Source of the DNA: an uncultured Chthoniobacter sp.
Lineage (GTDB): Bacteria > Verrucomicrobiota > Verrucomicrobiia > Chthoniobacterales > Terrimicrobiaceae
Assembly: GCA_964585615.1 (NCBI GenBank)
Contig: CAZPEN010000023.1
Location: forward strand, 1 to 64,000
DNA: 64,000 bases
Direction of reading: 5' to 3'
The translations under genes and the position numbers were made by a program. Shown one piece after another: positions 178 through 20,923 of this stretch (positions are counted from its first letter, which is position 1; every line of letters begins with the position of its first letter). The notes beneath the pieces are model-generated. The model did not search any database. It worked only from the letters and a program-made list of their open reading frames with translations, and had not been told where the DNA came from.

Positions 178-193
178 TGGCACGATTTTTGCC
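178..193 (+). promoter_or_regulatory. Sigma-54 (RpoN) -24/-12 promoter: TGGCACGatttTTGC
   Basis: Exact match to the TGGCACG-N4-TTGC consensus. GC of the -12 element at 191-192, 15 nt before the ATG at 207. Same strand as the downstream gene block. Confidence 0.7.
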
Positions 194-206
194 TCATCTC
201 CATTCG

Positions 207-680
207 ATGAAAAAACTCACATACGCCCTCCTCGCCGCCGCAGTGCTTGCCGGTGCGGGAAACGGATTCACCCGCGAGCCGGAGAAGTTCACGACCGAAG
301 AGGTCGTGACGGAAAAGAAAACCGTGAAAGTGCAGGCCAGTCCGGCCTCGGCCTTTCCATCCAACCCAAACGCGCAATACGTGAAGCTGCGGGTGGGAGA
401 AATCCGCCCGGCCCTTGAATCGAAAGGGAGCCTGTTTGCCTCCGCTCCGGAAGCCTTTTATCTGCCCGCCGAGGCTATCGGAGTGGTGCAGGTGATCGTG
501 GAAAAGAAAGGCACGACCGCCACGTATTTCCTCAAGGGCCTGCGCAAGGGAAAAACGGTCGGGGGCGTGGTCCAGCGCGGATGGCTTGACAAGACCGGCT
601 TCAAACCGAGGACGATCACCGACGAAGGCCGCATCCAGCAAGCGCTCAAGGCAAAACCCTTTTACGTCACTGTCGAATGA
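207..680 (+). CDS. secreted hypothetical protein (signal peptide MKKLTYALLAAAVLAGAG)
   Basis: ORF 165..680; the N-terminal signal peptide starts at the ATG at 207. No recognisable catalytic motifs. Confidence 0.6.
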   Translation: MKKLTYALLAAAVLAGAGNGFTREPEKFTTEEVVTEKKTVKVQASPASAFPSNPNAQYVKLRVGEIRPALESKGSLFASAPEAFYLPAEAIGVVQVIVEKKGTTATYFLKGLRKGKTVGGVVQRGWLDKTGFKPRTITDEGRIQQALKAKPFYVTVE

Positions 681-949
681 AAAAAATATCCATCCCGCTC
701 GCCGCCTCGCTTTTGCTCGTGGGCTGCGCCACGCAGATCACGGAAGGCCCCACCGGCCCTTCACGTCCGGCTCCGGTAGTCACGTCCTCCCCCGCCCCAA
801 CGCCCCGGCCCCAACCGGCGGAATCACCACGACCGACGCCGTCCCCGGTGAGCCGACCCACCCCTTACCCGATCCCCCAGAGACCCGATACAGGCACCTC
901 GCCTCTGGCCCCTTCGCCGGACCAACCGATCTGGCAACGCACCCAGTAA
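677..949 (+). CDS. small proline-rich lipoprotein (LVGCAT lipobox)
   Basis: Signal peptide plus lipobox LLLVGC. Pro/Thr/Ser-rich low-complexity mature part. Start overlaps the previous stop by 4 nt. Confidence 0.5.
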   Translation: MKKISIPLAASLLLVGCATQITEGPTGPSRPAPVVTSSPAPTPRPQPAESPRPTPSPVSRPTPYPIPQRPDTGTSPLAPSPDQPIWQRTQ

Positions 950-958
950 AGGCACTCT

Positions 959-2620
959 ATGCCTGCCGTCTCCGAGCTCAATCTGGCGCTGGTGATTCTC
1001 CGCGATGGGGCCGAGGGGGAGACCATTCCACTCAAGGGCGGAAAATTTACGTTCGGGCGCGATGCGGCGCACGATCTCACCCTGCCCGATGCCTCGGTCT
1101 CCAGAAACCACGCGGAGCTGGCCATTTCGCCAGGTGGAGTGCAACTCCGCGACCTCGGGAGCCGCAACGGCATCCGAGTGAACCGGGTTCCCCGTAAGCA
1201 GGCCAACCTCCTGCCGGGAGACACCTTCGAGATTGGTGTATTTACCTTCCGCCTCAAGGCCGGAGCGGCTCAACGGCGTGCGCCCGCGCTGCAACGCCCT
1301 TCGCCAGAGGTCGCCATCGAACAAACCGTCTCTCGCGCCTTCCCACTCCCGCAGCTGTCCCATGAGCGGCAACTCTCCACCATTTACCACGCCTGTTTCT
1401 GGCTCACGGAGAGCACGGATCCTGAGCTTCTCACCGAACGCCTTGCCCGCCTGCTTTGCGATGCGACCGATGCGGTGGAGGCGCAGTTTTATTCCGCAGA
1501 TCTCACCCTGCGCCACCGCTGCGGAGAGGCCGGAAAACCTGTTGTGAAGATCGCTGCTTTCCTTGCTGAGAAATTCCAGTCCCTGCCCGAGGCGGCCATG
1601 GTATCCGGTAAGGAGATCGCCCGGCACCAAAGGGGCGTCGGCCAGTTCAACTATCTCGTGGGCCCGATTCGCCGGGGGGGGAATGGCGATGCGGCAGCCC
1701 CTTTTATCCTCCTCTTGCGCCCCGAAGATTGGGAACCTTTCACCCTCGATCAGCGCGTGCTGTTGCAAGCCGTCTGCCAACTTTGGGCCAGGGAGACGGT
1801 CAAAATCGAAGCCACTGAGACCCTCCGCCGCGAGAACCAAGCCCTCAAGTTGAAGGCGGCCTCCCCAACCTTGCTCGGCCAGAGCGACGTCCTCCAGCAC
1901 CTGCGCCAGCAACTCAACCGCGCCGCCGCCACCAAGGCCACCATTCTGCTCGATGGCGAGACCGGCTCCGGCAAGGAAGTTGTCGCCCAATTTATCCACG
2001 AATCCAGCCCCCGTGCCGCCAAGCCCTTCGTCAAGGTCAACTGCGCCGCCATTCCCGACGGCCTCATCGAGAGCGAACTCTTCGGCCACCAGAAGGGGGC
2101 CTTCACAGACGCAAAAGACAGCCGCAAAGGCAAATTCCTTCAAGCCAACGGAGGCACCCTTTTCCTCGACGAAATCGGCGAGATGCCTCTCTCCGTGCAG
2201 GCCAAGGTGCTCCGCGCCCTCGAAAACGGGGAGATCGAACCCCTCGGCAGCGAGGCCGTGCAGAAGGTGGATGTGCGCGTCATCGCCGCCACGCACCGCA
2301 ACCTTGCCGAGATGGTCGAGCGCAAGGAATTCCGCCAGGACCTCTACTTTCGTCTCAATGTCTTCAACCTCGGTGTCCCTCCGCTGCGAGAACACGCCGG
2401 GGATATCGCCGAACTGGCCCGCCATTTCCTCGAAGCCTTCTGCCGCGAAAACGGCCTCGCCGAACTCGCCATCGCCCCCGCGGCCCTGGCCCTTCTCGAA
2501 AAACACCAATGGCCCGGCAACGTGCGCGAACTGCGCAATGTCATCCAGCGTTGCGCGATCGTTGCCGCCGGGCCGACGGTTTTGGCGGAAGACGTGAAAA
2601 AGGCGATCGGTGTTTCCTAA
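959..2620 (+). CDS. FHA-domain / GAF-like / sigma-54-interaction (AAA+) transcriptional activator lacking a C-terminal HTH
   Basis: N-terminal FHA signature ([22 protein letters not shown]...NGIRVN). Central AAA+ sigma-54 activator motifs: GETGSGKE Walker A, GAFTDA (GAFTGA-like), DEIGEM Walker B, GNVREL. Protein ends about 30 aa after the AAA+ domain with no Fis-type HTH. Confidence 0.85.
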
Positions 2621-2638
2621 GCATCAAAAAATCCATCC

Positions 2639-4438
2639 ATGAAAAAACTCAAAATCCTCTGCATTCACGGCGTGGGCCAGCACGAGGCGGACATCGCCTG
2701 GGTGCAGGCTTGGGCGGATCATGCGATTCAGGGCACGAAGCCCTGGAACCCGACTCTGCAAACCGAGGCAGACCTTCTCTATTTTGAAAAGTTTTTCGCC
2801 GACGCGCCGATCAATGCGGCGACATATGCCAAAGCGATCTCAGCGATGACCTTCAGCGGGCTGACACACGGAATCGGGGATTTGTTCCGCCGCAACCGGG
2901 GGGTCACGGAGGTCTCCAACAAAGTTCGCTGGCTTGCAGGCATGGTGGTGCAATGGGCGGACAACCCTCAACTCCGGGACAAGGTGCGGAAGGCAATCCG
3001 GCAGAAAATCACGAACTATCAACCCGATGTGATTCTCGCCCATAGCCTTGGCTCGCTCGTCACCTACGATACATTCGTGCACGGCGGGGACGATCTCGTG
3101 CGGGACCGATATTACGTGACCTTCGGGTCCCAAATCGGAAATCCCTTCGTGAGAAATATTTTTGGAGGACGGATTGTCCCTCTACCCGCCAAACGCTGGT
3201 TCCATCTTTTCAATCCTCAGGATGACGTGCTGACCGCCCGATTGAATCTCTCGGACACAAATTTTCTTCAAGTCATCACGGATTTTGAGCTTGAAGGCGT
3301 TGGCGATCACGATGCCGATGGCTACCTCAGCCATGCATCTGCCGTTCAGGTTGTGTGGTCAGAGATCAGTGGGGCCGAAAAATCCCAGTTGGCGAGGAAT
3401 CTGAAGGGAAAGTTCACGGCATCCGTGCGCGGTGCGGGCAAGCCTCTCAACCGGGCGCTGATCATCGGAATCAACGACTATCCCGATCCCAAGATGCGGC
3501 TTGAGGGATGTGTCAACGACGCCTTCCGCATGAGTGAGACGCTCCAGGAGTGCGGCTTTCCCGCAGAGGGAATCCGCCTGCTGCTCAATGAGCGCGCCAC
3601 GACGGATGCCATCCGAGAGCGCCTGGCCTGGCTGCTTGACCGTCCCCAGCCGGGCGACCAGCGGTTCCTGGCCTTCAGCGGGCACGGAGCGCAGATCGAA
3701 TCCTACGGACTCGGTGAATCCGTGGACCGTCAGGACGAGTGTCTTGTGCCCTACGATTTCGACTGGAGCCTGGACCGTGCCATCCTCGACGACTTCATCC
3801 ACGACCTCTACGTGGACCTCCCCGAGGGGCTGGACTTTTACGCGTTCTTCGACTGCTGCCACTCCGGAGGACTGGCCCGTGAGGGAGGCCCGAGGGTTCG
3901 GGGCCTGCAGCCTCCCGACGATGTCCGCCACCGCAGCTTGGAATGGGATGGAAAGCTGCAACTCTGGAAAGCCCGCAACCTGCCTCCCGTTAATCCCGAT
4001 CTCGCCGCATCGACAAAAAGCACATCGGCGATCAGTGGCGACGGGTCGGCCCTTTCAAATGGACAGTCTTACCTGGGGCGATCCGGGAATCTGCACCGCC
4101 TCTTGCGCTCTTCCTCACTCCGCACACTGCCAAACGCAAAATACGACTCCGTGCGCAAGGATCTCCATCACCACGGCCCCTATCTGCCCGTCATCTTCCA
4201 AGCCTGTCAGGAAAGCGAACTCGCCTGCGAATACCACCACGGAGCAGTGCCCTACGGGGCTTTCACCTTTGTCACAACCAATATCCTCCGCCAACACGCC
4301 GCACAGAAAAAGACGATCACCTTTGCCTCGTTGATCAAACGAACCAACTCCGCGCTCAAGGCGCTCGGTTACACACAGACACCGGTGCTCGTGGGACCAA
4401 GCGTAAAAATGCGAAAACCAATGCCTTGGAAGAAATAG
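2639..4438 (+). CDS. alpha/beta-hydrolase (lipase/esterase-like, AHSLGS nucleophile elbow) fused to a C-terminal caspase-like peptidase C14 domain
   Basis: N-terminus ILCIHGVGQ, AHSLGS, and later D and H residues typical of alpha/beta-hydrolases. C-terminal half has the caspase His (FSGHGAQ) and Cys (FFDCCHSGG) dyad after an ALIIGINDYPD..L.GCVNDA start. Confidence 0.8.
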   Translation: MKKLKILCIHGVGQHEADIAWVQAWADHAIQGTKPWNPTLQTEADLLYFEKFFADAPINAATYAKAISAMTFSGLTHGIGDLFRRNRGVTEVSNKVRWLAGMVVQWADNPQLRDKVRKAIRQKITNYQPDVILAHSLGSLVTYDTFVHGGDDLVRDRYYVTFGSQIGNPFVRNIFGGRIVPLPAKRWFHLFNPQDDVLTARLNLSDTNFLQVITDFELEGVGDHDADGYLSHASAVQVVWSEISGAEKSQLARNLKGKFTASVRGAGKPLNRALIIGINDYPDPKMRLEGCVNDAFRMSETLQECGFPAEGIRLLLNERATTDAIRERLAWLLDRPQPGDQRFLAFSGHGAQIESYGLGESVDRQDECLVPYDFDWSLDRAILDDFIHDLYVDLPEGLDFYAFFDCCHSGGLAREGGPRVRGLQPPDDVRHRSLEWDGKLQLWKARNLPPVNPDLAASTKSTSAISGDGSALSNGQSYLGRSGNLHRLLRSSSLRTLPNAKYDSVRKDLHHHGPYLPVIFQACQESELACEYHHGAVPYGAFTFVTTNILRQHAAQKKTITFASLIKRTNSALKALGYTQTPVLVGPSVKMRKPMPWKK

Positions 4439-4444
4439 AAGGGT

Positions 4445-5758
4445 ATGATCACTACAACTGAAGAATTGCTTGCCCGCGCCCGCTCTGCCCTGGGAAAGAA
4501 GATCCCTTATGAGAACAGCAAAGGTGGCTTCAAACCCGAAATCGATACTCCCAATCAGCGCGGCGGTTGCGACTGTAGCGGTTTCGTCGCCTGGGCGCTC
4601 GGCATTAGCCGCCTCACGAAGGATCCGTTCTACCTCCGCAAGAATGGTGGCTGGATTGAGACAACAGCCGTTTATGAGGATATTGGCTCGCCGGTGGGGC
4701 TGTTCTCTGCCCTGGACCAGCCACAACCCGGATGCGTCGTGGTCTATCCAGATCACGTCGCCGGTGGCACACCACACGAAGGTCACATCGGAATCGTGAC
4801 GAAGGTAAGAAAAACCGCAGCCGGTGCGGAAGCAACCTCCGTGATTCACTGCTCCTCATCGGGTTGGAAGAAGCAGGGAGACTCTATCCAGGAGAACGCG
4901 CCAGCCGCTCTGCTCAAGAATCCAGATGTGAGATACGGGTGGTTTTCCGGTATGGAATCTGTCATGTCGCCCGCTTCCAGATCCACGATTACCACAGCAA
5001 CCAGAGGGTTGCTCAGAGATGTCCCGCATGCCGCGGGAGTCCGGTTTTCCGTGAAGGAAGGGGACGGGATATTTACCCACGCCTGGGAGTTCCCCGGCGA
5101 GACACCATTCTTTTTTCAGAGCCGCCTTCATGTGTGCGCTGACGGTGCGCCAGACGCCTATGCGCCGGGAAACCTGGGAACAGACGACCTGCGTAACGCC
5201 GGAAAGCCTCCTCGCAAAGACGCTCCGATGGATCGCGACTTTCACCTCTGGAAATGGTTTGGCATAGTTGTTGGTGACGGAAATCACCCCATTGTACAAA
5301 AAGCCTCCGACCCCAACCCCGGCTTCTTCGTTTCCCAAACCGCCCATGGCAACTGGGGACGCTACCCGGAGACCGATCCGCGCTGCTACGTGAACGCCAA
5401 CGAGATCGCCTATCTGGTGCTTCCGAGTGGGCATACCGGCGGAGCTCGCAAGGGAGATTTTGGATCTATTATTCATCGCCCCACCGGCAAGGCGATCCCC
5501 GCCATCTGGTCCGAAGTGGGGCCGGACGACGAGACCGGGGAAGCATCGATTCTGGCTGTGAAGCAACTGGGATTTGTCGCCAACCCTCGCAAGGGAGGCA
5601 GTTCAAAACGCGAATTCCTCTATCTCGTCTTCCCGGGCTCAGGCAATGGTCGGCCTCGCGAGCAGAAAGAGATCGAAAAGATCGGCGGCCGACTTTTCGC
5701 CGATTGGGGCGGAATCCAGCGGGTATCGCGCCTGCCGGATCTGACGGGACGGGTATGA
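4445..5758 (+). CDS. NlpC/P60-like (papain-fold) cell-wall peptidase domain protein with a C-terminal domain of unknown function
   Basis: GGCDCSGFVAWALG motif (NlpC/P60 catalytic Cys context) and downstream HIGIV His. About 290 C-terminal residues unassigned. Confidence 0.6.
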   Translation: MITTTEELLARARSALGKKIPYENSKGGFKPEIDTPNQRGGCDCSGFVAWALGISRLTKDPFYLRKNGGWIETTAVYEDIGSPVGLFSALDQPQPGCVVVYPDHVAGGTPHEGHIGIVTKVRKTAAGAEATSVIHCSSSGWKKQGDSIQENAPAALLKNPDVRYGWFSGMESVMSPASRSTITTATRGLLRDVPHAAGVRFSVKEGDGIFTHAWEFPGETPFFFQSRLHVCADGAPDAYAPGNLGTDDLRNAGKPPRKDAPMDRDFHLWKWFGIVVGDGNHPIVQKASDPNPGFFVSQTAHGNWGRYPETDPRCYVNANEIAYLVLPSGHTGGARKGDFGSIIHRPTGKAIPAIWSEVGPDDETGEASILAVKQLGFVANPRKGGSSKREFLYLVFPGSGNGRPREQKEIEKIGGRLFADWGGIQRVSRLPDLTGRV

Positions 5759-7596
5759 ACTTCAGGACGGAGGGGCATCTGAACAGGGAGGACTCGCAAG
5801 GCTGGTATTTTAGTGAGTTCGACAGAATTGGCCTTGGCCGATTCCTCCTCCGGCAGAACGCAGGGCGCAAGCTGGCTTTGTGGGCTTTGCTGTTCTGGTC
5901 GATCGTCCTGCTTCTTGGCCACTACGGGAAAGCCAACTATATTCCCCGCGTTTTCGAATTGTCTTTCCCGGTTGGAGAGCAATGGGAAAAATTCACTCTT
6001 GTTCTAAAAAGCGGCTACCTTGCCGAGGCCAACCACGGTCTTTTTTACCTGCTGGTTGCTCCCCTGTTTCTCTTCCTCGCCCACTCCTTTCTATGGCAAG
6101 TGGGTGCCATTACCAGGACCTTGATTGAACACCGCAGGCTTGTGCCCCTGCCACCCAGCGCGAGTTTTACGGAGCGCCTCGCACGATGGAACACCTGGTT
6201 TTTGCCAATTTGGATTCTGGCCTTTTGTGTTTGGGTTCCGGCCCAGCTGTTTCAGGAATATTCCAGCCTCAACAAGGTGAGGTCTTCCGGTTACGACCGG
6301 AAGTCGGAAAGCCTCTCAAAGAACTTTGGCTATGTGCAGGCTTGGCAGACGGGAAAATGGTGCGACACGTTTGGAGAAACTCCCCTGCACGAGCGGGCGG
6401 AATGGCTGGCATCAAGCCGATTGTGGAAAGAAGAGTCTCCCTCGTTATCCCAGAAATTCGAAAATCGCGTCGCTTATAACAAACTCGGCATCCCCTCAGA
6501 ATACTTTATCTCGCTTGAGGCCAGAACGCAGGGATTGGCCTTTAACACCCTCCGGCCAGAAAAGGCCGGAAGAATCTATGACTCGGGACACTTTGCGATT
6601 CGACTTCCCGATTGGTTGCACGCACGAGGAGTTGCTCTGGACAAGCCACCGAAATGGAACTTTACGGTGCTGCCCCAACATCGATGGGATGCCCAAACGG
6701 TACGGGAAAAATATTGCTTTGAAGCCTTCCTGTTTCTCAATCTTGCCTCGGAAGCCTGTTTCCAGGTTGTCGCAACGCTTATCGTGATCAAGAGCATCGC
6801 CTGGATCGTTCTTTTGCAATATTGGCTGCCTTCCGCGACAACTTCCAAACCAAACGGAACGATCTTTCGCTTCATGAGGGAGGTTTTCCCCAAGGTATTT
6901 GCCATTGCCGCGCTCGGACTTACGGTCGTTTTTGCTTGTATCAAGCCGATGACCTTGTTCGCCACGGTTCCGGCCTGGCTGCTGGCTGCCTTGCTTTTCA
7001 ATCTCGCACGTCAGGGACGCAAGGAGGCGATTGCGCACGCCAAGATCAGGCCGGACTGCCAGGATCCGACCCGCAAATACGGAATGGGGGAAATTCACGC
7101 CATATACAATGCCATGGTTGCCCTGGCCGCACTTGGAGCGCTGGGTCTATGCCTACTACTTCTGAATTCCTTCACCCCCGGAGTCTTGGACACGGGTGGC
7201 GGCCACACACAGGTTATCGAATTTCTGAGCATTCTTTTGGTTGTAGCAGTGGTTTTGGCCGTAGTTTTCGGGCCGATGACGTTATTCAGTTGGCACCTCG
7301 CGACGTATCGGGAAAAATGCATCGGCAGAGTGGCCGCCAAAGGCACGACGGAATGGCTGCGCTTGACGGATTTGATGAGAAGCCAATGGGCTTGGCCGTG
7401 GAAGAATGCCTGGTTTGTGACATTGTCGGGGGCGGTCATCGCATTTTGCGCCGTGGGAGCCGGCATGAGCCTGGGTTTTCTGCCGGGTGAGTTACAGAGC
7501 TCTGCCGACAGCTTCATGGATTTGCCACGAAACTTTCGCGAGTTGGCTTGCTATCTTGCTTCCGCCACCAATCCAGAATTGTCTTTCCGAGATTGA
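5755..7596 (+). CDS. polytopic integral membrane protein (about 12 predicted TM helices), unknown function
   Basis: Many long hydrophobic segments. ATG at 5755 overlaps the upstream TGA (ATGA coupling). Confidence 0.6.
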   Translation: MNFRTEGHLNREDSQGWYFSEFDRIGLGRFLLRQNAGRKLALWALLFWSIVLLLGHYGKANYIPRVFELSFPVGEQWEKFTLVLKSGYLAEANHGLFYLLVAPLFLFLAHSFLWQVGAITRTLIEHRRLVPLPPSASFTERLARWNTWFLPIWILAFCVWVPAQLFQEYSSLNKVRSSGYDRKSESLSKNFGYVQAWQTGKWCDTFGETPLHERAEWLASSRLWKEESPSLSQKFENRVAYNKLGIPSEYFISLEARTQGLAFNTLRPEKAGRIYDSGHFAIRLPDWLHARGVALDKPPKWNFTVLPQHRWDAQTVREKYCFEAFLFLNLASEACFQVVATLIVIKSIAWIVLLQYWLPSATTSKPNGTIFRFMREVFPKVFAIAALGLTVVFACIKPMTLFATVPAWLLAALLFNLARQGRKEAIAHAKIRPDCQDPTRKYGMGEIHAIYNAMVALAALGALGLCLLLLNSFTPGVLDTGGGHTQVIEFLSILLVVAVVLAVVFGPMTLFSWHLATYREKCIGRVAAKGTTEWLRLTDLMRSQWAWPWKNAWFVTLSGAVIAFCAVGAGMSLGFLPGELQSSADSFMDLPRNFRELACYLASATNPELSFRD

Positions 7597-7664
7597 AAAT
7601 ATAGCTCGTTGAAATACCTCGTCTCACAATGAGCACATTCTCCTATTGCGACATGACCAGAACT

Positions 7665-7680
7665 TGGCACAGAAATTGCC
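7665..7680 (+). promoter_or_regulatory. Sigma-54 -24/-12 promoter: TGGCACagaaaTTGC
   Basis: Matches the TGGCAC-N5-TTGC consensus. In the 95-nt gap before the kinase gene. GC of -12 at 7678-7679, 13 nt before the GTG at 7692. Confidence 0.65.
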
Positions 7681-7691
7681 GGCCAGCGTAA

Positions 7692-9599
7692 GTGACAAAC
7701 GACGAACTCAATTCCTCCACGCTCAGCGGCGCGACCAGCGCCGGCGACGGTGCGTTGCCGGACGACATCGATTTCGGCCAGACGATCCGCGGGTTTGTCG
7801 AAGGGCAGGAGGCGTTTGGCCGTTATCGCCTTCGGAAGATTTTGGGCCGGGGCGGCATGGGGCTTGTCTGGCTGGCATGGGACGGACGGCTGGAGCGGGA
7901 TGTCGCGCTCAAGTTCATGCCGGAGATGGTGCGTTTGGATGCTTCGGCCATTGACGATCTCAAGCGGGAAACGCGCAAGAGCCTCGAACTCACTCATGCC
8001 AACATCGTTCGCATTCACGATTTTGCCATGGACGACTTGTCGGCAGCCATCGCCATGGAATATGTGGATGGCCCTACGCTTTCGGCTCTCCGCATCCAAA
8101 AACCGAACCGCGTTTTCGAGCCGGACGAGATTGTTGAGTGGGTGCGCCAGCTCTGCGCCGCCCTCGACTATGCACACTCGGAGGCCAAAATCGTCCATCG
8201 TGACCTCAAACCCGCCAACCTGATGCTCAGTTCCGGCGGACGCCTCAAAATCACCGACTTCGGCATCGCACGATCAATCAGCGACAGCATGAGTCGCGTT
8301 TCGGTGCAGCATCACGACAGCAGCGGCACGCTCGCCTACATGAGTCCACAGCAGGCCATCGGTGCGAAGCCTTCCTCAGCGGATGACATCTACAGCCTCG
8401 GGGCGACTCTCTATGACCTCCTTACCGGGAAGCCTCCGTTCCACAGCGGGAACATCTACGCCCAAGTTCGAGAGGTTGTGCCACCACCCATAGCCGAGAG
8501 ACGGGTGCAGCTGGACGTGGGAAGCAGCATGGTGCTTCCTGAGTCATGGGAAAAGATGATTGCAGCTTGCCTGGCGAAGGATCCTGCACACCGCCCGCAA
8601 TCGGCTGCCGAGATCTGGGAGGGTCTCAACGTACGTGTGTCCGCTGACACGTTGAAAAAATCGAGCCGCTTTCCGGTGCGGGTGGCTGCTGTTGTGGTCC
8701 TCTCCCTCATCGCTGCAGGCGCAGGCTGGTGGTTCGGCTACGAGCAGCCGCGCCAGCAGGCTGCTGCCGCACTCGCAGCCCAGGCGCAGGCCGAGGGACT
8801 CGCCCGCCAGGCCGCTGCTGCCGAGGCACAGGTTCAAAAGGAAGAAGCCGAAACCGCCGCTCGACAGGAAGCCGAGCGAAAGAAGGCCGAAGCTGCCGCC
8901 GCCGAGCAAGCCCGCATCGCCGCAGCCAAGCAGCAGCTCATCACCGAGACCCAGGATCTTGCTCAAAAGGCGCTCGCGGCCAAACAGTGGAACCAGGCAG
9001 AGTCCATTGCCGACAAACTTACCTCGCTCGACCCTCAGAATACGCAGATCGCGAGCATCCGCCAGTCTACAGTAGTCGGCCGCGAAGCCCAGCGTACCTC
9101 CGAGGAACGCGCCCGGGCGCTGCCCCCCGACCTCCCCGCCTCCGCAGCCTTCAGCACAGAAGCGATCTTCGCTCCCTCCCCCTACGCATCATACAACAAC
9201 TACTCGCAAAGTCAGATCCTTCGAAGAGCTCAGGAAAAGCTCAAATCAGCCGGGCTTTACAGCGGATCCGCTGACGGAGAATCCGGTGCAGGAACCACAA
9301 ATGCACTCATCGCTTTCCAGCGGGCAGACATGAACTTGCCTGTTTCAGGACGGTTGGATGATCCCACGCTCGCCGCACTCGGCCTCACCGGCATCGCCGA
9401 AATGACAGCGCCTACCCCCACACCACGTCCAAAACCGACCGCCACACCGAGGCCAAAGCCCGCAGGCACTACGAAGCCTCCTCCTTCCAATCCCAATAGT
9501 TCCGTGGATCCTAGAAGTGCCCTTCAAAGAAACTACGAGGCGGGATACATAGACAAAGAAACAAGAGACTTTTACCTCGAAGGTTTAAAAAACAGATAA
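7692..9599 (+). CDS. Hanks-type Ser/Thr protein kinase with TM helix, Ala/Gln/Glu-rich coiled-coil linker and C-terminal peptidoglycan-binding (PG_binding_1-like) domain
   Basis: Kinase motifs GRGGMG, VALK, HRDLKPAN, DFG, SGTLAYMSPQQ. TM segment VAAVVVLSLIAAGAGWWFG. C-terminus LKSAGLYSGSADGESGAGTTNALIAFQRADMNLPVSGRLDDPTLAAL matches the PG_binding_1 pattern. GTG start. Confidence 0.9.
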   Translation: MTNDELNSSTLSGATSAGDGALPDDIDFGQTIRGFVEGQEAFGRYRLRKILGRGGMGLVWLAWDGRLERDVALKFMPEMVRLDASAIDDLKRETRKSLELTHANIVRIHDFAMDDLSAAIAMEYVDGPTLSALRIQKPNRVFEPDEIVEWVRQLCAALDYAHSEAKIVHRDLKPANLMLSSGGRLKITDFGIARSISDSMSRVSVQHHDSSGTLAYMSPQQAIGAKPSSADDIYSLGATLYDLLTGKPPFHSGNIYAQVREVVPPPIAERRVQLDVGSSMVLPESWEKMIAACLAKDPAHRPQSAAEIWEGLNVRVSADTLKKSSRFPVRVAAVVVLSLIAAGAGWWFGYEQPRQQAAAALAAQAQAEGLARQAAAAEAQVQKEEAETAARQEAERKKAEAAAAEQARIAAAKQQLITETQDLAQKALAAKQWNQAESIADKLTSLDPQNTQIASIRQSTVVGREAQRTSEERARALPPDLPASAAFSTEAIFAPSPYASYNNYSQSQILRRAQEKLKSAGLYSGSADGESGAGTTNALIAFQRADMNLPVSGRLDDPTLAALGLTGIAEMTAPTPTPRPKPTATPRPKPAGTTKPPPSNPNSSVDPRSALQRNYEAGYIDKETRDFYLEGLKNR

Positions 9600-10352: not shown

Positions 10353-11168
10353 ATGATCCCTACACTCCGCAAAAACGATAAAGGCGATGCTGTCTCGCGC
10401 TGGCAGACCTTTCTCATCGGCCAAGGCTTCCACGCAAAAGGCGCCGACGGCGTTTTCGGCAAGGACACGCTCATCGCCACGGCGGCTTTCCAAAAGAAAT
10501 ACAAACTCAAGCCCGACGGTGTCGTAGGCAACAGCACCTACGCGGTGGCCGCACAACTCGGCTTTCCGATCACCACCGATGACTCGACCGCCCAGAATTC
10601 CATCTCGTGGCCAGTGCCGCCGAAGGATTTCGGTCCGACCAACGCAGAAACCCGGGACGCTGAGTTCGGATGGTTTGATTTCGAGCACGCTCCAGCCCCC
10701 AAAAACTATGAACGCATCCGCATCCTCTCGACGTGGGAGAAGGATAATCTGATCGTGGTGGATGTCCCGCAACTAGCGAAGGCCCTTGGATTAGCCACCC
10801 AAAGAGCCACCATCCACAAGAATATCCAAGATCCCTTTCTCTCTGTGTGGGCAGCTTGGGAAAAAGCAGGGCTGCTAGACCGCATATTGACTTGGGAGGG
10901 TGCTTTCTCCCCACGCTTCATCCGGGGCGGAGCCACACCCAAGAACGTCCAGGCCAAGAATCGCAGCAAGCTCAGCAACCACGCATGGGGCACGGCTTTC
11001 GACATCAACTACGAGTGGAACCAACTCGGCTCCATTCCGGCCCTTGTCGGACAGAAGGGCAGCGTCCGCGAGTTGGTCCCGCTCGCCCTCAAGCACGGCT
11101 TCTTTTGGGGTGGTCACTTCCGCAACCGGCTCGACGGCATGCACTTCGAATGGGGGCGGTGGACATGA
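10353..11168 (+). CDS. peptidoglycan-binding domain (PG_binding_1) + M15 (VanY/L-Ala-D-Glu peptidase-like) zinc peptidase
   Basis: N-terminal GDAVSRWQTFLIGQGF..DGVFGKDT..AFQKKYKLKPDGVVGNSTY matches PG_binding_1. C-terminal SNHAWGTAFDIN and GGHF..DGMHFE motifs match M15 zinc-binding H-x6-D ... H. Confidence 0.75.
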   Translation: MIPTLRKNDKGDAVSRWQTFLIGQGFHAKGADGVFGKDTLIATAAFQKKYKLKPDGVVGNSTYAVAAQLGFPITTDDSTAQNSISWPVPPKDFGPTNAETRDAEFGWFDFEHAPAPKNYERIRILSTWEKDNLIVVDVPQLAKALGLATQRATIHKNIQDPFLSVWAAWEKAGLLDRILTWEGAFSPRFIRGGATPKNVQAKNRSKLSNHAWGTAFDINYEWNQLGSIPALVGQKGSVRELVPLALKHGFFWGGHFRNRLDGMHFEWGRWT

Positions 11169-12982: not shown

Positions 12983-12998
12983 TGGCACGGAATCTGCC
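12983..12998 (+). promoter_or_regulatory. Sigma-54 -24/-12 promoter (near-consensus): TGGCACGgaatCTGC
   Basis: TGGCACG-N4-CTGC (GC of -12 conserved). 54 nt upstream of the ATG at 13051. Same TGGCACGGAAT as the promoter at 18894. Confidence 0.55.
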
Positions 12999-14592: not shown

Positions 14593-14863
14593 ATAAAATG
14601 GACTCCAGTTCCAATGACAATTCGGTTTCCCGTTGGATGGAACATCTCAGTTCCGCACTGCTTTTGCTCATGGGTGGCTGCCTGGGAGGGGGCGCGATTT
14701 TCGAGATTGTCTTTAAACGCGGAGAACCTTCCGTTTTGCGACAGGAAACATTGCTGGGAATTTTGGTGGCGGCAGCCCTCCTTCTTCCGGGGGTGGCACC
14801 AGAGTTTCGCGCAAACTAGCCAAACAAAAAATGAGAAATCAAAAATGGGGAAGCTGCAGAGAA

Positions 14864-15640
14864 ATGAAATACATTGTTTTAGCACTGCTGGGCATAGCAG
14901 GATTCTCTCGCGCGCAGGAGACAAATTCGCTTGGGATGAAACTTGTGCCGGTGCCTGGAACAAAGATCCTGATGGCGACGACGGAGGTGACGGTGGACCA
15001 ATACAAGGCGGCAGGGCTCGGGTATGAGTCGCCGAAGTTTCCGCAGGGAGGCAATCACCCTGCGGTGAACGTGAGCTGGAACGACGCGAAGAAGTATTGC
15101 GCGTGGCTGAGTAAGAAGGAGGGGAAGAAGTATCGGCTGCCGACAGATCATGAATGGAGTTGCGCTGTCGGAATCGGACATTTGGAGAATCCAGCAGACA
15201 ATCCGGCAAGCAAGAGTGAAAAGATCGTTGATGTGTATCCATGGGGAAAAGGGAAGCCGAGCGGGAAGGCAGGCAACTACATGGGGCAGGAGTGGAATTC
15301 GCCAATGGGAATCGAGACCGCTCAAAAATACGGATTCAAGCGGGGCGAGTGGAGTTTAGTTCCTGGCTATCACGACGGAGTTCTTTTCACATCGGCGGTC
15401 GGCAACTACTCACCGAATACATTTGGGATCTACGATTTGGGGGGAAACGTTTGGGAGTTGTGCGAGGACAAGTTCGGCGGGAACGGATATGATAAGAGCA
15501 TGCGTGTGCAACGGGGCGGGTCATGGGGATACTTCACCAAGGATTTTGTATTATCGTCCTCCCGTATCCGCAATGAACCAGGATCTCGCAGCGACAACAT
15601 CGGCTTTCGGGTTGTGTGTATTCCAATAGATAAACCGTGA
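14864..15640 (+). CDS. FGE-sulfatase (SUMF1/formylglycine-generating enzyme family) domain protein, secreted, paralog 1
   Basis: NHPAVNVSWNDAKKYCAWLS, RLPTDHEW, DLGGNVWE, RGGSW motifs typical of the FGE-sulfatase domain. Signal peptide. Confidence 0.8.
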   Translation: MKYIVLALLGIAGFSRAQETNSLGMKLVPVPGTKILMATTEVTVDQYKAAGLGYESPKFPQGGNHPAVNVSWNDAKKYCAWLSKKEGKKYRLPTDHEWSCAVGIGHLENPADNPASKSEKIVDVYPWGKGKPSGKAGNYMGQEWNSPMGIETAQKYGFKRGEWSLVPGYHDGVLFTSAVGNYSPNTFGIYDLGGNVWELCEDKFGGNGYDKSMRVQRGGSWGYFTKDFVLSSSRIRNEPGSRSDNIGFRVVCIPIDKP

Positions 15641-15756
15641 ATGATATGAATGAATCAAAAACGTTGGCAAAGCCAGGAATTGGAAGACAGCCTTCCGGAT
15701 TTAGTATCGAAGTGGAGAGCGAAGCGAAGCAAATGGCTTGCCGATCCGTCCGAGTA

Positions 15757-16566
15757 ATGAAAGCGAAACGCATCGGCAGGATGCGGATGCCACGATGGGT
15801 TGTCTTGGCGATGGCGCTTGTGGTGTCGGCGTCTATCGCTCGCGCGCAGGGTTTCACGAACAGCGTTGGAATGAAGATGGTTCCTGTGCCGGGCACAAAG
15901 ATCCTGATGGGGACGACGGAGGTGACAGTGGATCAATACCGGGCGGCAGGTCTGGGGTATGAGGCACCGGAGTTCGCGCAGAGCGGGAACCATCCGGCGG
16001 TGAATGTGAGCTGGAACGATGCGAAGAAATACTGCGCATGGCTGAGCAAGAAGGAGGGGAAGAAGTATCGTTTGCCGAGTGACCGGGAGTGGAGTTGCGC
16101 GGTGGGGATCGGGAATCTGGAGAGCGTGGGAGGGAGCCCGGAGAGCAAGTGCGAGAAGTTGCCGGATGTGTTTCCGTGGGGAAGCGGGAAGCCGAGTGGG
16201 AGGGCAGGGAATTACATGGGGCAGGAGTGGAAAAGTAGCTCGGCAGGAATAGCATATGCGAAATCGAAGGGTTGGAAAGAGGGGCAACTGTGCCTGGTTC
16301 CCGACTACAATGATGGACACATGTTCACGGCTCCCGTGGGAAGCTATTCACCGAACAGTCTTGGGATCTACGATCTGGGGGGAAACGTGTGGGAATGGTG
16401 CGAGGACAAATACGGAGGAAGCGGAGCAGCAAAAGCCTATCGTGTGATGCGCGGCGGGGCGTGGGGCGGTGGCGACATCTGCGGTTTGCTGTCGTCGTGT
16501 CGCGATCACGTCAATCCCGAGTATCGCGGCGGTAGCTACGGTTTTCGGGTGGTCTGTGAGGCGTGA
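15757..16566 (+). CDS. FGE-sulfatase domain protein, secreted, paralog 2 (tandem duplicate)
   Basis: About 70% identical to the upstream paralog over the domain. Same motifs. Confidence 0.8.
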   Translation: MKAKRIGRMRMPRWVVLAMALVVSASIARAQGFTNSVGMKMVPVPGTKILMGTTEVTVDQYRAAGLGYEAPEFAQSGNHPAVNVSWNDAKKYCAWLSKKEGKKYRLPSDREWSCAVGIGNLESVGGSPESKCEKLPDVFPWGSGKPSGRAGNYMGQEWKSSSAGIAYAKSKGWKEGQLCLVPDYNDGHMFTAPVGSYSPNSLGIYDLGGNVWEWCEDKYGGSGAAKAYRVMRGGAWGGGDICGLLSSCRDHVNPEYRGGSYGFRVVCEA

Positions 16567-16646: not shown

Positions 16647-17366
16647 ATGAAATGCCATTTTGGTGGTTCAAAGCGGTCGAATCGAGAAAGCCAAGCCTCT
16701 CAACAGGAACTTAACGGTGTCCGGCGGATTTCGCTACTGCCTCTTTGCGTTTTTTTGATCCTGACTTTTCTCGCGAGCCATGTCGGAGCGCAATCCTACG
16801 GCTTGGCACCAATTTATGTGGGTATTGAGAAGAACGCGATATCCGGTATTTCGGCTTCGCAGAAGACACCGATGTGGTGTTGGGCTGCTTGTATTGAGAT
16901 GGTGTTGCGGTATTACAACATTGAAATCACTCAGGAAGATGTCGTCTATCGCACCTACGGTATTGACGCGGCTGGAAATCTGCCAGTATTTGGAGCGAAA
17001 GCCCCGGAGATCACACGGAATCTAAATAACTGGAGTTTCGATCGGAATGGCAAACCTTACGTGGTTCGGGCGGCGTTGTTTCCGGGAACTCCGCGTAACG
17101 AGATTGTCATTGATCATCTCAAATCGGGAAGGCCCATTATCCTGGGATATGGACCTGATCCTGATTCCGGCCATGTCGTGGTGCTGACGGCACTGAGTTA
17201 TGTCGTGGACCAATATGGGAGGCCATATGTGACTACCTTGATTGTGCGAGATCCGTTTCCCGATAATTGGGGATTGATGGATCGAGGGCGAAAGGAATAC
17301 GTGAACGGCATGCTCCCGGCACCGATTCAATGGATGTGGATCGTGGATGCAAAACGGGCCTATTGA
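16647..17366 (+). CDS. secreted papain-like cysteine peptidase (C39-like domain)
   Basis: Signal peptide. PMWCWAACIEMVL (Cys in a C39/papain-like context) and downstream SGHVVVLTAL His. Confidence 0.55.
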   Translation: MKCHFGGSKRSNRESQASQQELNGVRRISLLPLCVFLILTFLASHVGAQSYGLAPIYVGIEKNAISGISASQKTPMWCWAACIEMVLRYYNIEITQEDVVYRTYGIDAAGNLPVFGAKAPEITRNLNNWSFDRNGKPYVVRAALFPGTPRNEIVIDHLKSGRPIILGYGPDPDSGHVVVLTALSYVVDQYGRPYVTTLIVRDPFPDNWGLMDRGRKEYVNGMLPAPIQWMWIVDAKRAY

Positions 17367-17502: not shown

Positions 17503-18771
17503 ATGTGTTGGGTTTCTGGTTGTATGAAAACAAGACCATGCCTTAGGATTGTGCGTCTAGCCTGCAAGCATTTCAATAAGTTGAGTCAGCGCGAGGTTTT
17601 CGCATTTGTTGTCATTTCTCTGGGAGGCTTGGCTGGTGGTTTTTTGAGTGATTTACGACATCCAGATCCTCTGGCAAGCCGGGAGAGCATGGATTATTTT
17701 TACCTGATTTTCGGTGTGGCTGCAGCTTGGGTTGGCGTCTACGTCGTTCTGGGGAGTGAGGTCGTCAAGCTTGTTCGCCGCTTTGCCCTGTCGGTGGTTT
17801 GTGGCTTCGCTGGCGTAGCGGTAATTGAAAGCACGCAAAGCTTTGTTGGAGTGAAGGAGAAGGTGGATTTTCAGAGTGCTTTGAATCAAGAGAAATTGAT
17901 ACAAGAAAGGATTCGACAGATTATCCGACAGCAGGAATTGCAAGTTGATGGGGCGAGAATTGAGAATAGCGCTGAAGCAAAGATCCAGGAGACGCGAAAT
18001 CGTTTAGCTCAGCTTCTTTCGATGGCAGCTGCCTATCCTTCGATGGAAACGGATGGCATGATACTTCCGACACTTTTTGTCGGCCTCGATACTCTTGAAG
18101 ACGGAGTCAAGCAAGCTCCGCGTGAGTCAGTGCAGGCACTTCGTGATCTTTCGGGATTGGAAGGTCTCTGCTTGTCGGATTACATGAAGGGTCTCCTAAA
18201 GCGACACTTGAGGAACGCGGAAACATCTCTGCAGGCAGTTGCCGCCTCTACTCCGATTCCCAATTTGGCAGGTTCTGAAGTCGCTTCCTCTCCTGCGACA
18301 GCGAAGCCCACTGCGCAAATAGGAAACATGCCCGGCAGAGGTGCATCACCCTCTCCTTCTCCAATCGGCCTTTCTACGGCTAGTCCAACGCCTGAGCAAG
18401 AATCTGCCGTGGGGTTTATCAGGGTTGCGAACTATGGCCCTCTTCAAAGTCAAAATCCAAAGTGGGATGATATTTTGATTCGCTCCGCGCAAGGAAATAA
18501 GAATCGAGGCTTCCCTAAACCAACCGGAGCGGAGCCCGAGAATGAAATGCTGGATCTGAACGCGAAATACGTTGTGGAGGCCGATATTTTTCTTCGTAGC
18601 GACTTTCCCTCAGTGAACGAGAAGGGGCTGTTATTCGCCCCCAGTATCGCCGTAATTAAAAGGGGATCTCTGGTTACAGTGACACGTGCGGCGATCAGAT
18701 CGAACAAATCGCTGTCTCAACTTTGGGCGGAAGTTTCCGTTAACCGAAACGATCTTCTTTCTGTTGAGTGA
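17503..18771 (+). CDS. membrane-anchored coiled-coil protein, unknown function
   Basis: N-terminal TM segments then long helical region. Lower GC at its 5' end. Confidence 0.45.
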   Translation: MCWVSGCMKTRPCLRIVRLACKHFNKLSQREVFAFVVISLGGLAGGFLSDLRHPDPLASRESMDYFYLIFGVAAAWVGVYVVLGSEVVKLVRRFALSVVCGFAGVAVIESTQSFVGVKEKVDFQSALNQEKLIQERIRQIIRQQELQVDGARIENSAEAKIQETRNRLAQLLSMAAAYPSMETDGMILPTLFVGLDTLEDGVKQAPRESVQALRDLSGLEGLCLSDYMKGLLKRHLRNAETSLQAVAASTPIPNLAGSEVASSPATAKPTAQIGNMPGRGASPSPSPIGLSTASPTPEQESAVGFIRVANYGPLQSQNPKWDDILIRSAQGNKNRGFPKPTGAEPENEMLDLNAKYVVEADIFLRSDFPSVNEKGLLFAPSIAVIKRGSLVTVTRAAIRSNKSLSQLWAEVSVNRNDLLSVE

Positions 18772-20921: not shown

Positions 20922-20923
20922 CT

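Follow-up and report, generated by a model that had tools for sequence, protein, structure and literature searches.

Within the window, the 64,000 nt stretch of contig CAZPEN010000023.1 from an uncultured Chthoniobacter sp. that was analysed here, one gene (ABH-C14) is predicted from its sequence to encode a single cytoplasmic polypeptide with two enzyme domains, an alpha/beta hydrolase followed by a metacaspase, both with intact catalytic centres. The fusion, proposed in an earlier note on this DNA, is not unique to it: relatives occur, patchily and at 44-53% identity, in no fewer than 508 of the 185,579 species genomes searched, from more than 10 phyla. Pairing of a hydrolase with a caspase is already known as a kind, since alpha/beta-hydrolase and caspase gene pairings have been described from bacterial conflict systems by Kaur et al. 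(PMC7159879). What is novel is the fusion of both into one polypeptide and the widespread family of such proteins, of which no published account was found in the literature searched. A 2012 survey of prokaryotic metacaspases worked from Pfam domains only, and such fusions would therefore have been tallied as caspase-only.

Table 1. Features of the ABH-C14 gene and of its surroundings, in positions of the window.
Feature	Position	Strand	Details
Perfect sigma-54 -24/-12 consensus, TGGCACGATTTTTGC	178-192	+	precedes the genes of 207-7596, among them 2639-4438
FHA plus sigma-54 AAA+ activator (bEBP)	959-2620	+	Pfam FHA, Sigma54_activat and AAA_lid_14; matches stop at residue 550 of 553
ABH-C14 ORF, alpha/beta hydrolase fused to metacaspase	2639-4438	+	ORF list: ATG start, complete, 599 aa
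N-terminal alpha/beta-hydrolase domain, unclassified family	2639-3382	+	aa 1-248
Nucleophile elbow AHSLGS	3038-3055	+	aa 134-139; Ser136 codon 3044-3046; between strand 131-135 and helix 137-147
Variable basic inter-domain linker	3383-3448	+	aa 249-270; pLDDT low at 249-267 (full-length model); poor conservation
Metacaspase p20 region	3449-3874	+	aa 271-412; Pfam C14, TbMCA2 alignment
Catalytic dyad	His349 at 3683-3685; Cys407 at 3857-3859	+	TbMCA2 alignment
p20-p10 linker	3875-4153	+	aa 413-505; linker of about 95 aa, an insertion of about 90 aa when compared with Pfam C14; low AF2 confidence
Metacaspase p10 region	4154-4408	+	aa 506-590; Pfam C14 match to 585, AtMC9 match 272-584
CHAP/NlpC-P60-like plus GH75-like protein	4445-5758	+	Pfam CHAP 1.9e-5, Glyco_hydro_75 2.1e-3
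Membrane protein, about 9 TM	5755-7596	+	JGI gene call, TM scan; no Pfam match

The ATG start of the ABH-C14 gene is supported by the N-terminus of its product, MKKLKILCIHGVG, which fits the family consensus MxxxLxILCVHGVGH. Strand 1 of the hydrolase forms the immediate beginning of the chain, with nothing before it, and no transmembrane segment or signal peptide was found anywhere in the 599 aa (best 19-residue Kyte-Doolittle window 0.95), as the earlier note had also held for this single polypeptide. More than 120 full-length homologs were recovered, with coverage of 99-100% and identity of 46-53%, and Ser136, Asp195, His224, His349 and Cys407 are each conserved in 120 of 120 of them. The arrangement of the two domains relative to each other was discarded, as the full-length AF2 model (pTM 0.47) has no inter-domain contact and its inter-domain geometry is unreliable.

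Structure prediction confirmed an alpha/beta-hydrolase fold for the N-terminal domain. The oxyanion motif HG (H10-G11) follows directly on strand 1 and is invariant among homologs, as is H135-S136-L137-G138 of the elbow (120 homologs). In the predicted structure Asp195 follows strand 186-191 and His224 follows strand 209-213, so that the elbow serine, the acid and the histidine have the order and the loop positions that are canonical for the alpha/beta-hydrolase superfamily, together with an oxyanion-hole motif. The serine-hydrolase domain with AHSLGS described in the earlier note is thus upheld. Residues 60-127 form a helical insert in the fold, about 70 aa long, whose surface shows the invariant motif RWTAGMVxQW together with R87 and L112-R113. 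By sequence the domain is isolated: it has no Pfam match at E<=10 and none in NCBIfam, a profile of 16 N-domains found nothing at E<=10 among all PDB sequences, 9jyx included, and Pfam run on each of the 16 homologous N-domains gave nothing above threshold. Sub-threshold Pfam matches among the 16 were to Ser_hydrolase, Hydrolase_4 ('serine aminopeptidase S33'), Abhydrolase_6 and LCAT, and some homologs carry the JGI label 'predicted alpha/beta hydrolase family esterase'. Taken together, the domain is predicted to be an active Ser-Asp-His alpha/beta hydrolase with an intact triad, forming a sequence family of its own.

What such a hydrolase would act upon is less sharply indicated. Several lipases and a DDHD domain are among the structures nearest to the N-domain, and the top single Foldseek structure is the Nir2 DDHD domain (PDB 9jyx), at a marginal TM-score of 0.51 and ranked first with one model and second with the other. 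Enzymes of the iPLA1 group have the GxSxG serine (PMC9031518); the DDHD domain of Nir2 is itself catalytically dead (PMC12582312). Membership in the DDHD/iPLA1 group was rejected on the lack of a PF02862 match and of a PDB sequence match and on the shifting structural rank. Of the earlier label of lipase or phospholipase, the serine hydrolase fold stands, whereas no sequence family bears out the more specific part and the DDHD match is marginal and unstable. Activity as a lipase or phospholipase is plausible, mainly from rare family members with an added PF04185 phospholipase C/acid phosphatase-like or PLDc_2 (phospholipase D-like) domain.

The C-terminal domain has a complete metacaspase layout of p20, linker and p10, closest to that of plant type II metacaspases. 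Its PF00656 (C14) match scores 92.7 bits against a cut-off of 21.4 (residues 272-585), the caspase/haemoglobinase fold was confirmed, and both dyad contexts, FSGHG around His349 and FDCCHSG around Cys407 (Cys213 of TbMCA2), are kept in 120 of 120 homologs, all of which agrees with the complete C14 His/Cys dyad domain reported earlier. Invariant residues of p10 are A522, C523, E531, Y532, G540 and A541. The S1-pocket residues Cys291, Asp294, Ser347 and Asp405, likewise conserved in 120/120, correspond to Cys92, Asp95, Ser156 and Asp211 of TbMCA2, which have been assigned to an acidic pocket (PMC4357240). A pocket of this type is typical of Arg/Lys-specific metacaspases, and the same specificity is predicted here. 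The acids aligned to the residues that we take to form the Ca2+ site of TbMCA2 are partly kept: D366 is D in 95/120 and N in 23/120, D384 never varies, and 91/120 have D or E at position 415. The p20-p10 linker contains an invariant Arg-rich motif (R414, R421-G, PDD, R430-H-R432, W436, W443 and R446) and is a candidate autoinhibitory or self-cleavage segment.

Exact sigma-54 sites number three in the window, where 0.14 would be expected, and all of them lie just 5' of plus-strand genes; the promoters of the locus are placed at 178-192, 7665-7679 and 18894-18908. The site listed in Table 1 sits 15 nt 5' of the first ATG, at 207, with hardly any room for a leader. The bEBP, which lacks a C-terminal HTH, is directly upstream of ABH-C14 and probably co-transcribed with it, as the earlier note had stated: the gap from its stop at 2620 to the ATG at 2639 is 18 nt, the next gap, to the CHAP-GH75 gene, is 6 nt, neither holds a terminator-like site, and the perfect sigma-54 promoter lies upstream. 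The start of the 9-TM gene then overlaps the CHAP-GH75 stop by 4 nt. The CHAP-GH75 protein has no transmembrane segment and no signal peptide. Its homologs, only 32 in number, carry both domains, and conservation of the local operon through this gene was dropped as an idea, the three homolog contexts examined being all unlike each other. Some homologs have giant DUF6443/RHS-type proteins or a KAP NTPase in their vicinity; at one locus (L090) a 569-aa gene directly upstream takes the place of ABH-C14, and its product is related neither to ABH-C14 nor to the 9-TM protein of the window. The operon is part of a locus of about 23 kb with a peptidoglycan-binding Ser/Thr kinase (STK), two FHA-TM-caspase proteins and two FGE-sulfatase (FGS) domain proteins, and the window also encodes a PG_binding-M15 protein without a signal peptide. 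Elsewhere in the window, a DUF58/DUF4129 cluster is found at 29.7-34.8 kb on the opposite strand, about 25 kb from the ORF. No MoxR, vWA or VMAP gene adjoins the ORF in the window or any homolog among 135 neighbours elsewhere.

Within the family the hydrolase domain almost never occurs without the caspase. The hydrolase profile matches 149 representative proteins; C14 is present in 102 of these as well, and the remainder are fragments or frameshifted copies. A triple fusion, C11-hydrolase-C14, exists as well (P0180); a GH108-like identity for the 200-aa N-terminal extension of some homologs was unconfirmed by Pfam. Cultivable hosts include strains of Bradyrhizobium, Cupriavidus, Hoeflea, Nitratireductor, Geomonas and Sulfuriferula.

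Gene neighbourhoods were compared over about 75 other genomes, with 135 immediate neighbours and, for clustering, 1,156 ORFs from 80 loci. The gene stands solo or adjoins another peptidase gene, in surroundings that are mostly of housekeeping type; about a quarter to a third of the homolog loci have such a peptidase (astacin-like, clostripain C11, small caspase or C70). The commonest Pfam families among the 135 neighbours are Astacin (8), Peptidase_C11 (7), Peptidase_C14 (7), PPC (7) and Peptidase_C70 (3). There is no universal partner gene in the 80 loci, the biggest neighbour cluster being an ABC ATPase at 14 loci, and one homolog lies near RHS genes. The FHA-bEBP link is particular to the window locus and no property of the family: a sigma-54 activator domain was seen in 3 of the 135 neighbours, the regions upstream of 76 homologs showed no enrichment of the -24/-12 motif against an in-gene control, on which ground sigma-54 control as a family-wide trait was rejected.

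The earlier note had inferred an effector of conflict or abortive infection. Gene context does not support a defence role, because the neighbours are not defence islands: none was recognisable around the homologs in the ~75 genomes. PADLOC run on the 135 neighbours gave scattered, mostly generic matches and no recurrent defence component. The window protein itself has a domain-level match only to the generic 'caspase' model PDLC02987, and with the NCBIfam EACC1-type caspase model it scores 28 bits against a cut-off of 140, below threshold. Membership in a known PADLOC anti-phage system was rejected, given this generic match and the lack of recurrent defence components beside homologs.

The reading that we favour, with the chances for and against it about evenly balanced, is that of a latent intracellular degradative or cell-death module, wired in this genome into a regulated lysis or death programme. 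The protein would be produced as a latent zymogen, and a trigger, for which Ca2+ entering through a damaged envelope and a cut made by a partner protease are candidates, would free the metacaspase through self-cleavage at the invariant linker Arg residues. The freed protease would then cut cellular proteins, possibly including neighbouring protease zymogens, and the hydrolase would attack an ester substrate, most probably a membrane (phospho)lipid. In the source genome the module would be placed in a sigma-54 operon behind the FHA activator and followed by the signal-less peptidoglycan hydrolase and the 9-TM protein. As this operon lies inside the STK, FHA-caspase and FGE-sulfatase locus, phospho-threonine signals from the cell envelope probably turn on its expression. 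Against this reading count that the neighbours seldom match defence models, that the sigma-54/FHA context is confined to the window locus, that no sensor domain was found, that the AF2 model has no reliable inter-domain geometry and that the site at 178-192 allows scarcely any leader.

Strong conservation across phyla, at 45-50% identity, and housekeeping-type neighbours are unusual for fast-evolving conflict effectors, and a physiological role fits these two features equally well. In such a role, which we think rather improbable overall, the protein would serve protein turnover, stress proteostasis or the maturation of peptidase zymogens, with the hydrolase working on the same substrates as an additional peptidase, amidase or esterase. 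The strong purifying selection, neighbours that are mostly housekeeping or peptidase genes rather than defence genes, the sub-threshold Hydrolase_4 and Ser_hydrolase matches in some homologs and the term 'peptidase pairings', used for hydrolase-caspase pairs by Kaur et al. (PMC7159879), all lean this way. However, a core housekeeping role is disfavoured by a distribution that is patchy and scattered over phyla, the PLC-like and PLD-like fusions point to lipids, and the window gene is accompanied by signal-less cell-wall hydrolases and further caspases, with regulation dedicated to them. A toxin exported against competitors or a host, in the form of a polymorphic toxin or secretion-system cargo that travels with CHAP-GH75 and whose caspase would free the lipase in the target cell as in MARTX toxins, is very unlikely. 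The signal-less CHAP-GH75 and PG_binding-M15 proteins nearby, the RHS-type or KAP NTPase surroundings of CHAP-GH75 homologs, the ABH-C14 homolog close to RHS genes and the release of effector domains by the clan CD protease of MARTX (PMC4357240) could be read in its favour, but no secretion genes, PAAR/VgrG/Rhs fusion, delivery domain or adjacent immunity gene were found in the window or at about 75 homolog loci, and the hydrolase core begins right at the N-terminus.

The hydrolase could instead be a sensor or switch that binds and hydrolyses a small molecule or lipid, with a conformational change or an acyl-enzyme freeing the metacaspase as the sole effector. Alpha/beta hydrolases do act as signal receptors or activators in plants (D14/KAI2, GID1) and in Bacillus subtilis (RsbQ with RsbP). 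No further domain of the protein is a sensor, yet the hydrolase is obligately fused to the caspase, and the 60-127 insert bears an unusually invariant motif; moreover, the N-terminal region of type I metacaspases regulates the active site (PMC4357240), a place held here by the hydrolase. Nevertheless, D14 and RsbQ are absent from the top structural matches, there is no ligand candidate, AF2 gives no inter-domain contact, and the PLC-like and PLD-like fusions better suit an effector, so that we regard a sensing hydrolase as a doubtful prospect. It could be extended, with similarly low probability, to a stand-alone, horizontally mobile 'sensor-executioner', whose hydrolase would sense a damage or invader lipid or small molecule and, through its hydrolysis, unlock the Arg/Lys-specific, type II-like metacaspase, and whose protease cascade, by firing neighbouring astacin, clostripain and small-caspase zymogens, would kill or remodel the cell; in the source genome it would join a sigma-54/FHA/Ser-Thr-kinase multi-caspase programme.

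Bacterial metacaspases are abundant, but for hardly any of them, to our knowledge, has a trigger, a substrate or a biological role been established. The present family is small enough in scale to lend itself to experiment: one cytoplasmic protein of about 600 aa with both active sites intact, recurring beside intracellular proteases. Should the hydrolase prove to be a lipase effector, the family would amount to a suicide module of lipase plus protease; should it prove to be a switch that senses a ligand, metacaspase control would be possible without NLR/STAND-type sensors; and a true 'sensor-executioner' would be a bacterial one-protein counterpart to eukaryotic metacaspase damage responses. 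The N-domain also defines an alpha/beta-hydrolase family as yet unmodelled by Pfam and NCBIfam, and the window locus is a rare case of caspase-type genes apparently under sigma-54 and phospho-threonine (FHA/STK) control.

Among known systems, small YdeN/RBBP9-type enzymes (Ser_hydrolase, PF06821) resemble the hydrolase domain in size, with a sub-threshold match in 6/16 members (best E-value 0.0019; none for the window protein itself), and lack its helical insert. The VMAP ternary systems, compared by description, consistently combine a caspase-superfamily peptidase with an alpha/beta hydrolase, with predicted joint action. Theirs are two separate adjacent genes in MoxR-vWA-VMAP operons, in contrast to the single polypeptide of the window, which is encoded by a gene that is usually solo or beside another peptidase and has no adjacent MoxR, vWA or VMAP. 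In Vibrio cholerae, an alpha/beta-hydrolase phospholipase A1 is among the MARTX effectors. The clan CD protease (CPD) of MARTX and large clostridial toxins frees effector domains by autoprocessing after an allosteric trigger (PMC4357240). The likeness, a clan CD protease and effector domains in one polypeptide, is a functional analogy only: the MARTX CPD is of family C80 with Leu specificity and an InsP6 trigger, while the window protein is C14 with predicted Arg/Lys specificity, and MARTX is a huge secreted toxin while the window protein is cytoplasmic and of 599 aa.

Type II metacaspases provide the nearest structures to the C-terminal domain, and Arabidopsis MC9 and MC4 (type II, C14B) match the window protein by sequence at E of ~1e-17 to 1e-19. 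Both have the His/Cys dyad and the acidic S1 pocket, and in both a linker separates p20 from p10; in plant type II metacaspases this linker holds the self-cleavage site. The linker of the window protein is shorter (~95 aa) than that of the plant enzymes, with its own invariant Arg-rich motif and no evident plant linker motif. We know of no characterised metacaspase with an N-terminal alpha/beta-hydrolase domain. Type II enzymes are defined by having no N-terminal prodomain; unlike the plant members, the window protein is bacterial and carries in that place a large enzymatic domain, its hydrolase.

ABH-C14, an alpha/beta hydrolase (ABH) fused to a metacaspase (Peptidase_C14), is encoded by a genuine open reading frame of 599 aa, and its start codon is considered sound because the N-terminus MKKLKILCIHGVG agrees with the consensus N-terminus of more than 100 homologs. 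The complete C14 His/Cys dyad domain claimed in the earlier note is borne out. Peptidase_C14 matches residues 272-585 (Pfam, E 3.6e-26; 92.7 bits against a curated cut-off of 21.4), and the catalytic pair, H349 (SGHG) and C407 (DCCHSG), is invariant or nearly so in 120 homologs. Among sequences of solved structures, matches were obtained to Trypanosoma brucei metacaspase MCA2 (TbMCA2; E 6e-22), Arabidopsis metacaspases 4 and 9, and yeast Mca1; the domain is a true C14B metacaspase, nearest to the type II enzymes. C407 aligns with Cys213 of TbMCA2. The TbMCA2 S1 pocket residues are Cys92, Asp95, Ser156, and Asp211 (PMC4357240), and the equivalents in ABH-C14 (Cys291, Asp294, Ser347, and Asp405) are each conserved in 120 of 120 homologs, from which cleavage after Arg/Lys is predicted, as for other metacaspases. 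Between the two metacaspase regions, p20 (271-412) and p10 (about 506-590), lies a linker with an insertion of ~95 residues relative to the Pfam profile, the initial third of which is strongly conserved (R414, R421-G422, P426-D427-D428, R430-H431-R432, W436, W443, R446). As the enzyme is expected to cut after Arg, and metacaspase activation proceeds through Ca2+ and/or proteolysis (PMC4357240), we propose this segment as a candidate autoinhibitory or self-cleavage element.

The N-terminal domain belongs to the alpha/beta-hydrolase superfamily and to no curated family. Residues 1-269 have no Pfam match even at E<=10 and no NCBIfam match, and a profile of the domain matches no PDB sequence. Filing it as DDHD (intracellular PLA1-type, iPLA1) or as Ser_hydrolase was rejected, the sequence tests having failed. 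The AHSLGS serine-hydrolase domain described earlier is supported residue by residue: H10-G11 (oxyanion motif following strand 1), H135-S136-L137-G138 (nucleophile elbow, strand 131-135/helix 137-147), D195 (following strand 186-191), and H224 (following strand 209-213) are invariant or nearly so in the 120 full-length homologs, in an order and placement canonical for a Ser-Asp-His alpha/beta hydrolase. Since ABH-C14 lacks any hydrophobic segment (Kyte-Doolittle mean of at most 0.95 over 19 residues), in agreement with the claim that it lacks a TM segment, and opens directly with hydrolase strand 1, it is by sequence a cytoplasmic protein; its interpretation as an exported toxin cargo finds little support.

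The fusion architecture is widespread. A search of 5.8 billion proteins yielded more than 120 full-length relatives (580-620 aa, 46-53% identity, 99-100% coverage), and relatives were confirmed in at least 508 genomes in a scan of one genome per species. These span Planctomycetota, Verrucomicrobiota, Alpha-, Beta-, Gamma-, and Deltaproteobacteria, Nitrospirota, Chloroflexota, Acidobacteriota, Gemmatimonadota, and several candidate phyla, with cultured carriers including Sulfuriferula multivorans, Cupriavidus sp. 2TAF22, three Bradyrhizobium species, Hoeflea sp. TYP-13, Nitratireductor sp. XY-223, and Geomonas paludis. Their only NCBI name is 'caspase family protein'. When the hydrolase domain was searched by itself as a profile against 1.84 billion representatives, 1,532 proteins were recovered at E<=1e-3, of which 244 reached E<=1e-30. 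The hydrolase family is essentially always tied to a C14 domain, as 102 of the 149 best matches also carry C14, the others being fragments at contig ends or frameshifted copies that stop just past the caspase start.

Rare variants extend the basic chain. In one, of about 1,100 aa, a PF04185 phospholipase C/acid-phosphatase-like domain precedes the hydrolase and C14 (two confirmed by Pfam, with four more proteins matching these in size and layout); in others a PLD-like domain (PLDc_2) follows C14, FAD-oxidase domains (FAD_binding_4 or ALO) are present, or, in P0180, a clostripain (C11) domain, the hydrolase, and a caspase start share one chain. The larger relatives of these kinds are P0156, P0214 (probably also P0221, P0251, P0255, and P0266), P0172, P0143, P0240, and P0180. 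About a tenth of homologs carry a conserved N-terminal extension, helical in some, of ~200 aa (P0029, P0025, P0011) or ~130 aa (P0022, P0033, P0101, P0114), the range in the helical ones being 130-200 aa. One type opens RIVDFEARRKNGK...GGG.YEVAGIN, the second is helical and rich in Ala/Thr, and Pfam matches neither.

Clustering of ORFs from 80 loci found no universally conserved neighbour, and the four contexts checked by hand (Cupriavidus, two large MAG contigs, and the closest homolog) all differ, are housekeeping-like, and contain no FHA-bEBP, the FHA-domain sigma-54 activator encoded upstream of ABH-C14 in the window. Immediate neighbours are non-random. The leading Pfam families among 135 flanking proteins are Astacin (8), Peptidase_C11/clostripain (7), Peptidase_C14 (7; small stand-alone p20-type caspases), the pre-peptidase domain PPC (7), Peptidase_M10 (4, in part the astacin proteins again), and Peptidase_C70 (3), from which another peptidase lies next door in about one quarter to one third of loci, usually on the same strand and within ~100 nt. 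Visual inspection of two partners (an astacin-like protein and a C11 protein) revealed no obvious signal peptide. As regards the claim that the fusion resembles conflict effectors, PADLOC models matched few neighbours, mostly through generic domains, and there is no evidence for the family in defence islands.

Within the window the gene lies in a sigma-54/FHA/caspase locus. Three exact copies of the sigma-54 consensus TGGCAC-N5-TTGC are present in 64 kb, where 0.14 are expected, all on the plus strand and 15-60 nt upstream of a plus-strand gene start; almost no 5' leader remains after the sites at 178 and 7665.

Features of the window locus and its surroundings
Feature	Coordinates	Strand	Remarks
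Sigma-54 site, exact	178-192	+	Before gene string 207-7596, including ABH-C14
FHA + sigma-54-AAA+ activator (FHA-bEBP)	959-2620	+	ABH-C14 gene 18 nt downstream
ABH-C14	2639-4438	+	ATG start
CHAP/NlpC-P60 + GH75-like, without signal peptide	4445-5758	+	Starts 6 nt after ABH-C14
Membrane protein, ~9 TM segments, no family assignment	5755-7596	+	Start overlaps CHAP-GH75 stop
Sigma-54 site, exact	7665-7679	+	Before Ser/Thr kinase
Ser/Thr kinase	7692-9599	+	One TM helix, Ala/Gln-rich coiled segment, extracytoplasmic PG_binding_1
PG_binding_1 + M15_4 peptidase, without signal peptide	10353-11168	+	
Sigma-54 site, one mismatch	12983-12997	+	Before zinc-ribbon/Band_7 gene
Sigma-54 site, one mismatch	14794-14808	+	Before exported FGS-domain gene pair
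Two adjacent FGS (FGE-sulfatase, C-type-lectin-like) proteins	14831-15640, 15637-16566	+	Signal peptides
Exported 239-aa ORF	16647-17366	+	Papain-like Cys/His signature (MWCWAAC ... SGHVVV)
422-aa ORF	17503-18771	+	3 TM segments + coiled coil
Sigma-54 site, exact	18894-18908	+	Before tandem FHA-TM-caspase genes (18966-22600)
Two tandem FHA-TM-C14 proteins	18966-20921, 20924-22600	+	TM helix around residue 127/141
Two tRNA genes	23319-23403, 23702-23775	-	Right-hand edge of locus
DUF58 + DUF4129 proteins with neighbouring genes	29720-34813	-	~25 kb from caspase locus

The distribution of sites suggests a multi-operon sigma-54 regulon run by FHA-bEBP, which consists of FHA, AAA+, and lid without a C-terminal HTH DNA-binding domain, ends 3 residues past the lid, and has no Pfam family match in residues 100-300, between FHA and AAA+. 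Co-transcription of ABH-C14 with this activator, as first proposed, is well supported here by the short intergenic gap and the sigma-54 site before the gene string. The link is lineage-specific, since a sigma-54 activator domain occurs in only three neighbours elsewhere and no sigma-54 motif is enriched upstream of homologs. The only other locus seen with a sigma-54 activator directly upstream is L089 (Pelomicrobium sp. MAG, 5099-9545), which reads histidine kinase, NtrC-type bEBP, ABH-C14.

The Ser/Thr kinase is a candidate peptidoglycan-sensing kinase feeding the locus's FHA proteins. With an N-terminal FHA, one TM helix, and a C-terminal Peptidase_C14, the tandem FHA-C14 proteins would place the caspase outside the cytoplasmic membrane and the FHA inside, reading phospho-threonine; their caspases share only about 25-30% identity with that of ABH-C14. 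The CHAP-GH75 and PG_binding_1 + M15_4 proteins are both cell-wall hydrolases. The first of them, cytoplasmic, adjoins a multi-pass membrane protein, an endolysin-holin-like layout that suggests, by analogy, a regulated lysis cassette; proteins of other organisms combine the GH75-like module with Amidase_2, VanY, or a DUF900 alpha/beta hydrolase. FGS domains have repeatedly been reported beside caspases in surveys of prokaryotic metacaspases and conflict systems. Several lipoproteins are also encoded. The 239-aa and 422-aa ORFs occupy a lower-GC stretch; papain-like Peptidase_C70 genes flank ABH-C14 in three other genomes. Beyond the right edge the window carries ordinary chromosomal housekeeping genes, and the locus may be a genomic island whose left end lies outside the window. 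DUF58/DUF4129-type clusters usually accompany MoxR/vWA (Bat-like) systems; no link between the one in the window, on the opposite strand, and the caspase locus is evident.

Two intact, conserved catalytic centres lie on one cytoplasmic chain. On the preferred reading, ABH-C14 would be made as a latent zymogen; on a trigger, which by comparison with other metacaspases (PMC4357240) could well be Ca2+ or a partner protease, the Arg-specific metacaspase would cleave itself in the conserved linker, then degrade proteins and perhaps mature neighbouring protease zymogens, and the hydrolase would attack an ester substrate. A less probable rival, a role in ordinary proteolysis or zymogen maturation, draws on the high conservation and the non-defence neighbourhoods. 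Another rival, similarly less probable but attractive, regards the hydrolase as a ligand-sensing switch for the caspase and not an effector, since no other sensor is present and its helical insert carries an invariant motif.

On the preferred reading, membrane phospholipid is the favoured ester substrate of the hydrolase, because family members acquire PLC-like and PLD-like domains, because a DDHD domain gives the longest structural alignment and several lipases are among the nearest structures, and because effectors of the alpha/beta-hydrolase type in comparable systems have been interpreted as acting on lipids (PMC8195603). This is the weakest step, as the fold matches are generic, the rank of the DDHD match is unstable, and the DDHD domain of Nir2 is itself inactive (PMC12582312). 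Of the original lipase/esterase-like label, the alpha/beta hydrolase stands, and lipase activity is plausible.

Among clan CD proteases, the MARTX cysteine protease domain, which sets effector domains free (PMC4357240), is analogous to the metacaspase of ABH-C14. VMAP ternary systems were previously noted to pair an ABH functionally with a caspase (PMC7159879), as separate neighbouring genes, whereas ABH-C14 is a single chain. With its caspases, FGS domains, Ser/Thr kinase, and FHA proteins, the window locus echoes the FGS-centred and ternary 'conflict systems' of Kaur et al. (PMC7159879, PMC8195603); no STAND, MoxR, or vWA core adjoins these genes of the window. No prior description of the fusion family was found in a non-exhaustive search of the literature. 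New here are a widespread, conserved family in which the single-chain fusion is obligate and which mostly stands alone, the repeated association of this family with further intracellular peptidases, and, in the window, its placement under sigma-54/FHA control beside two further caspases.
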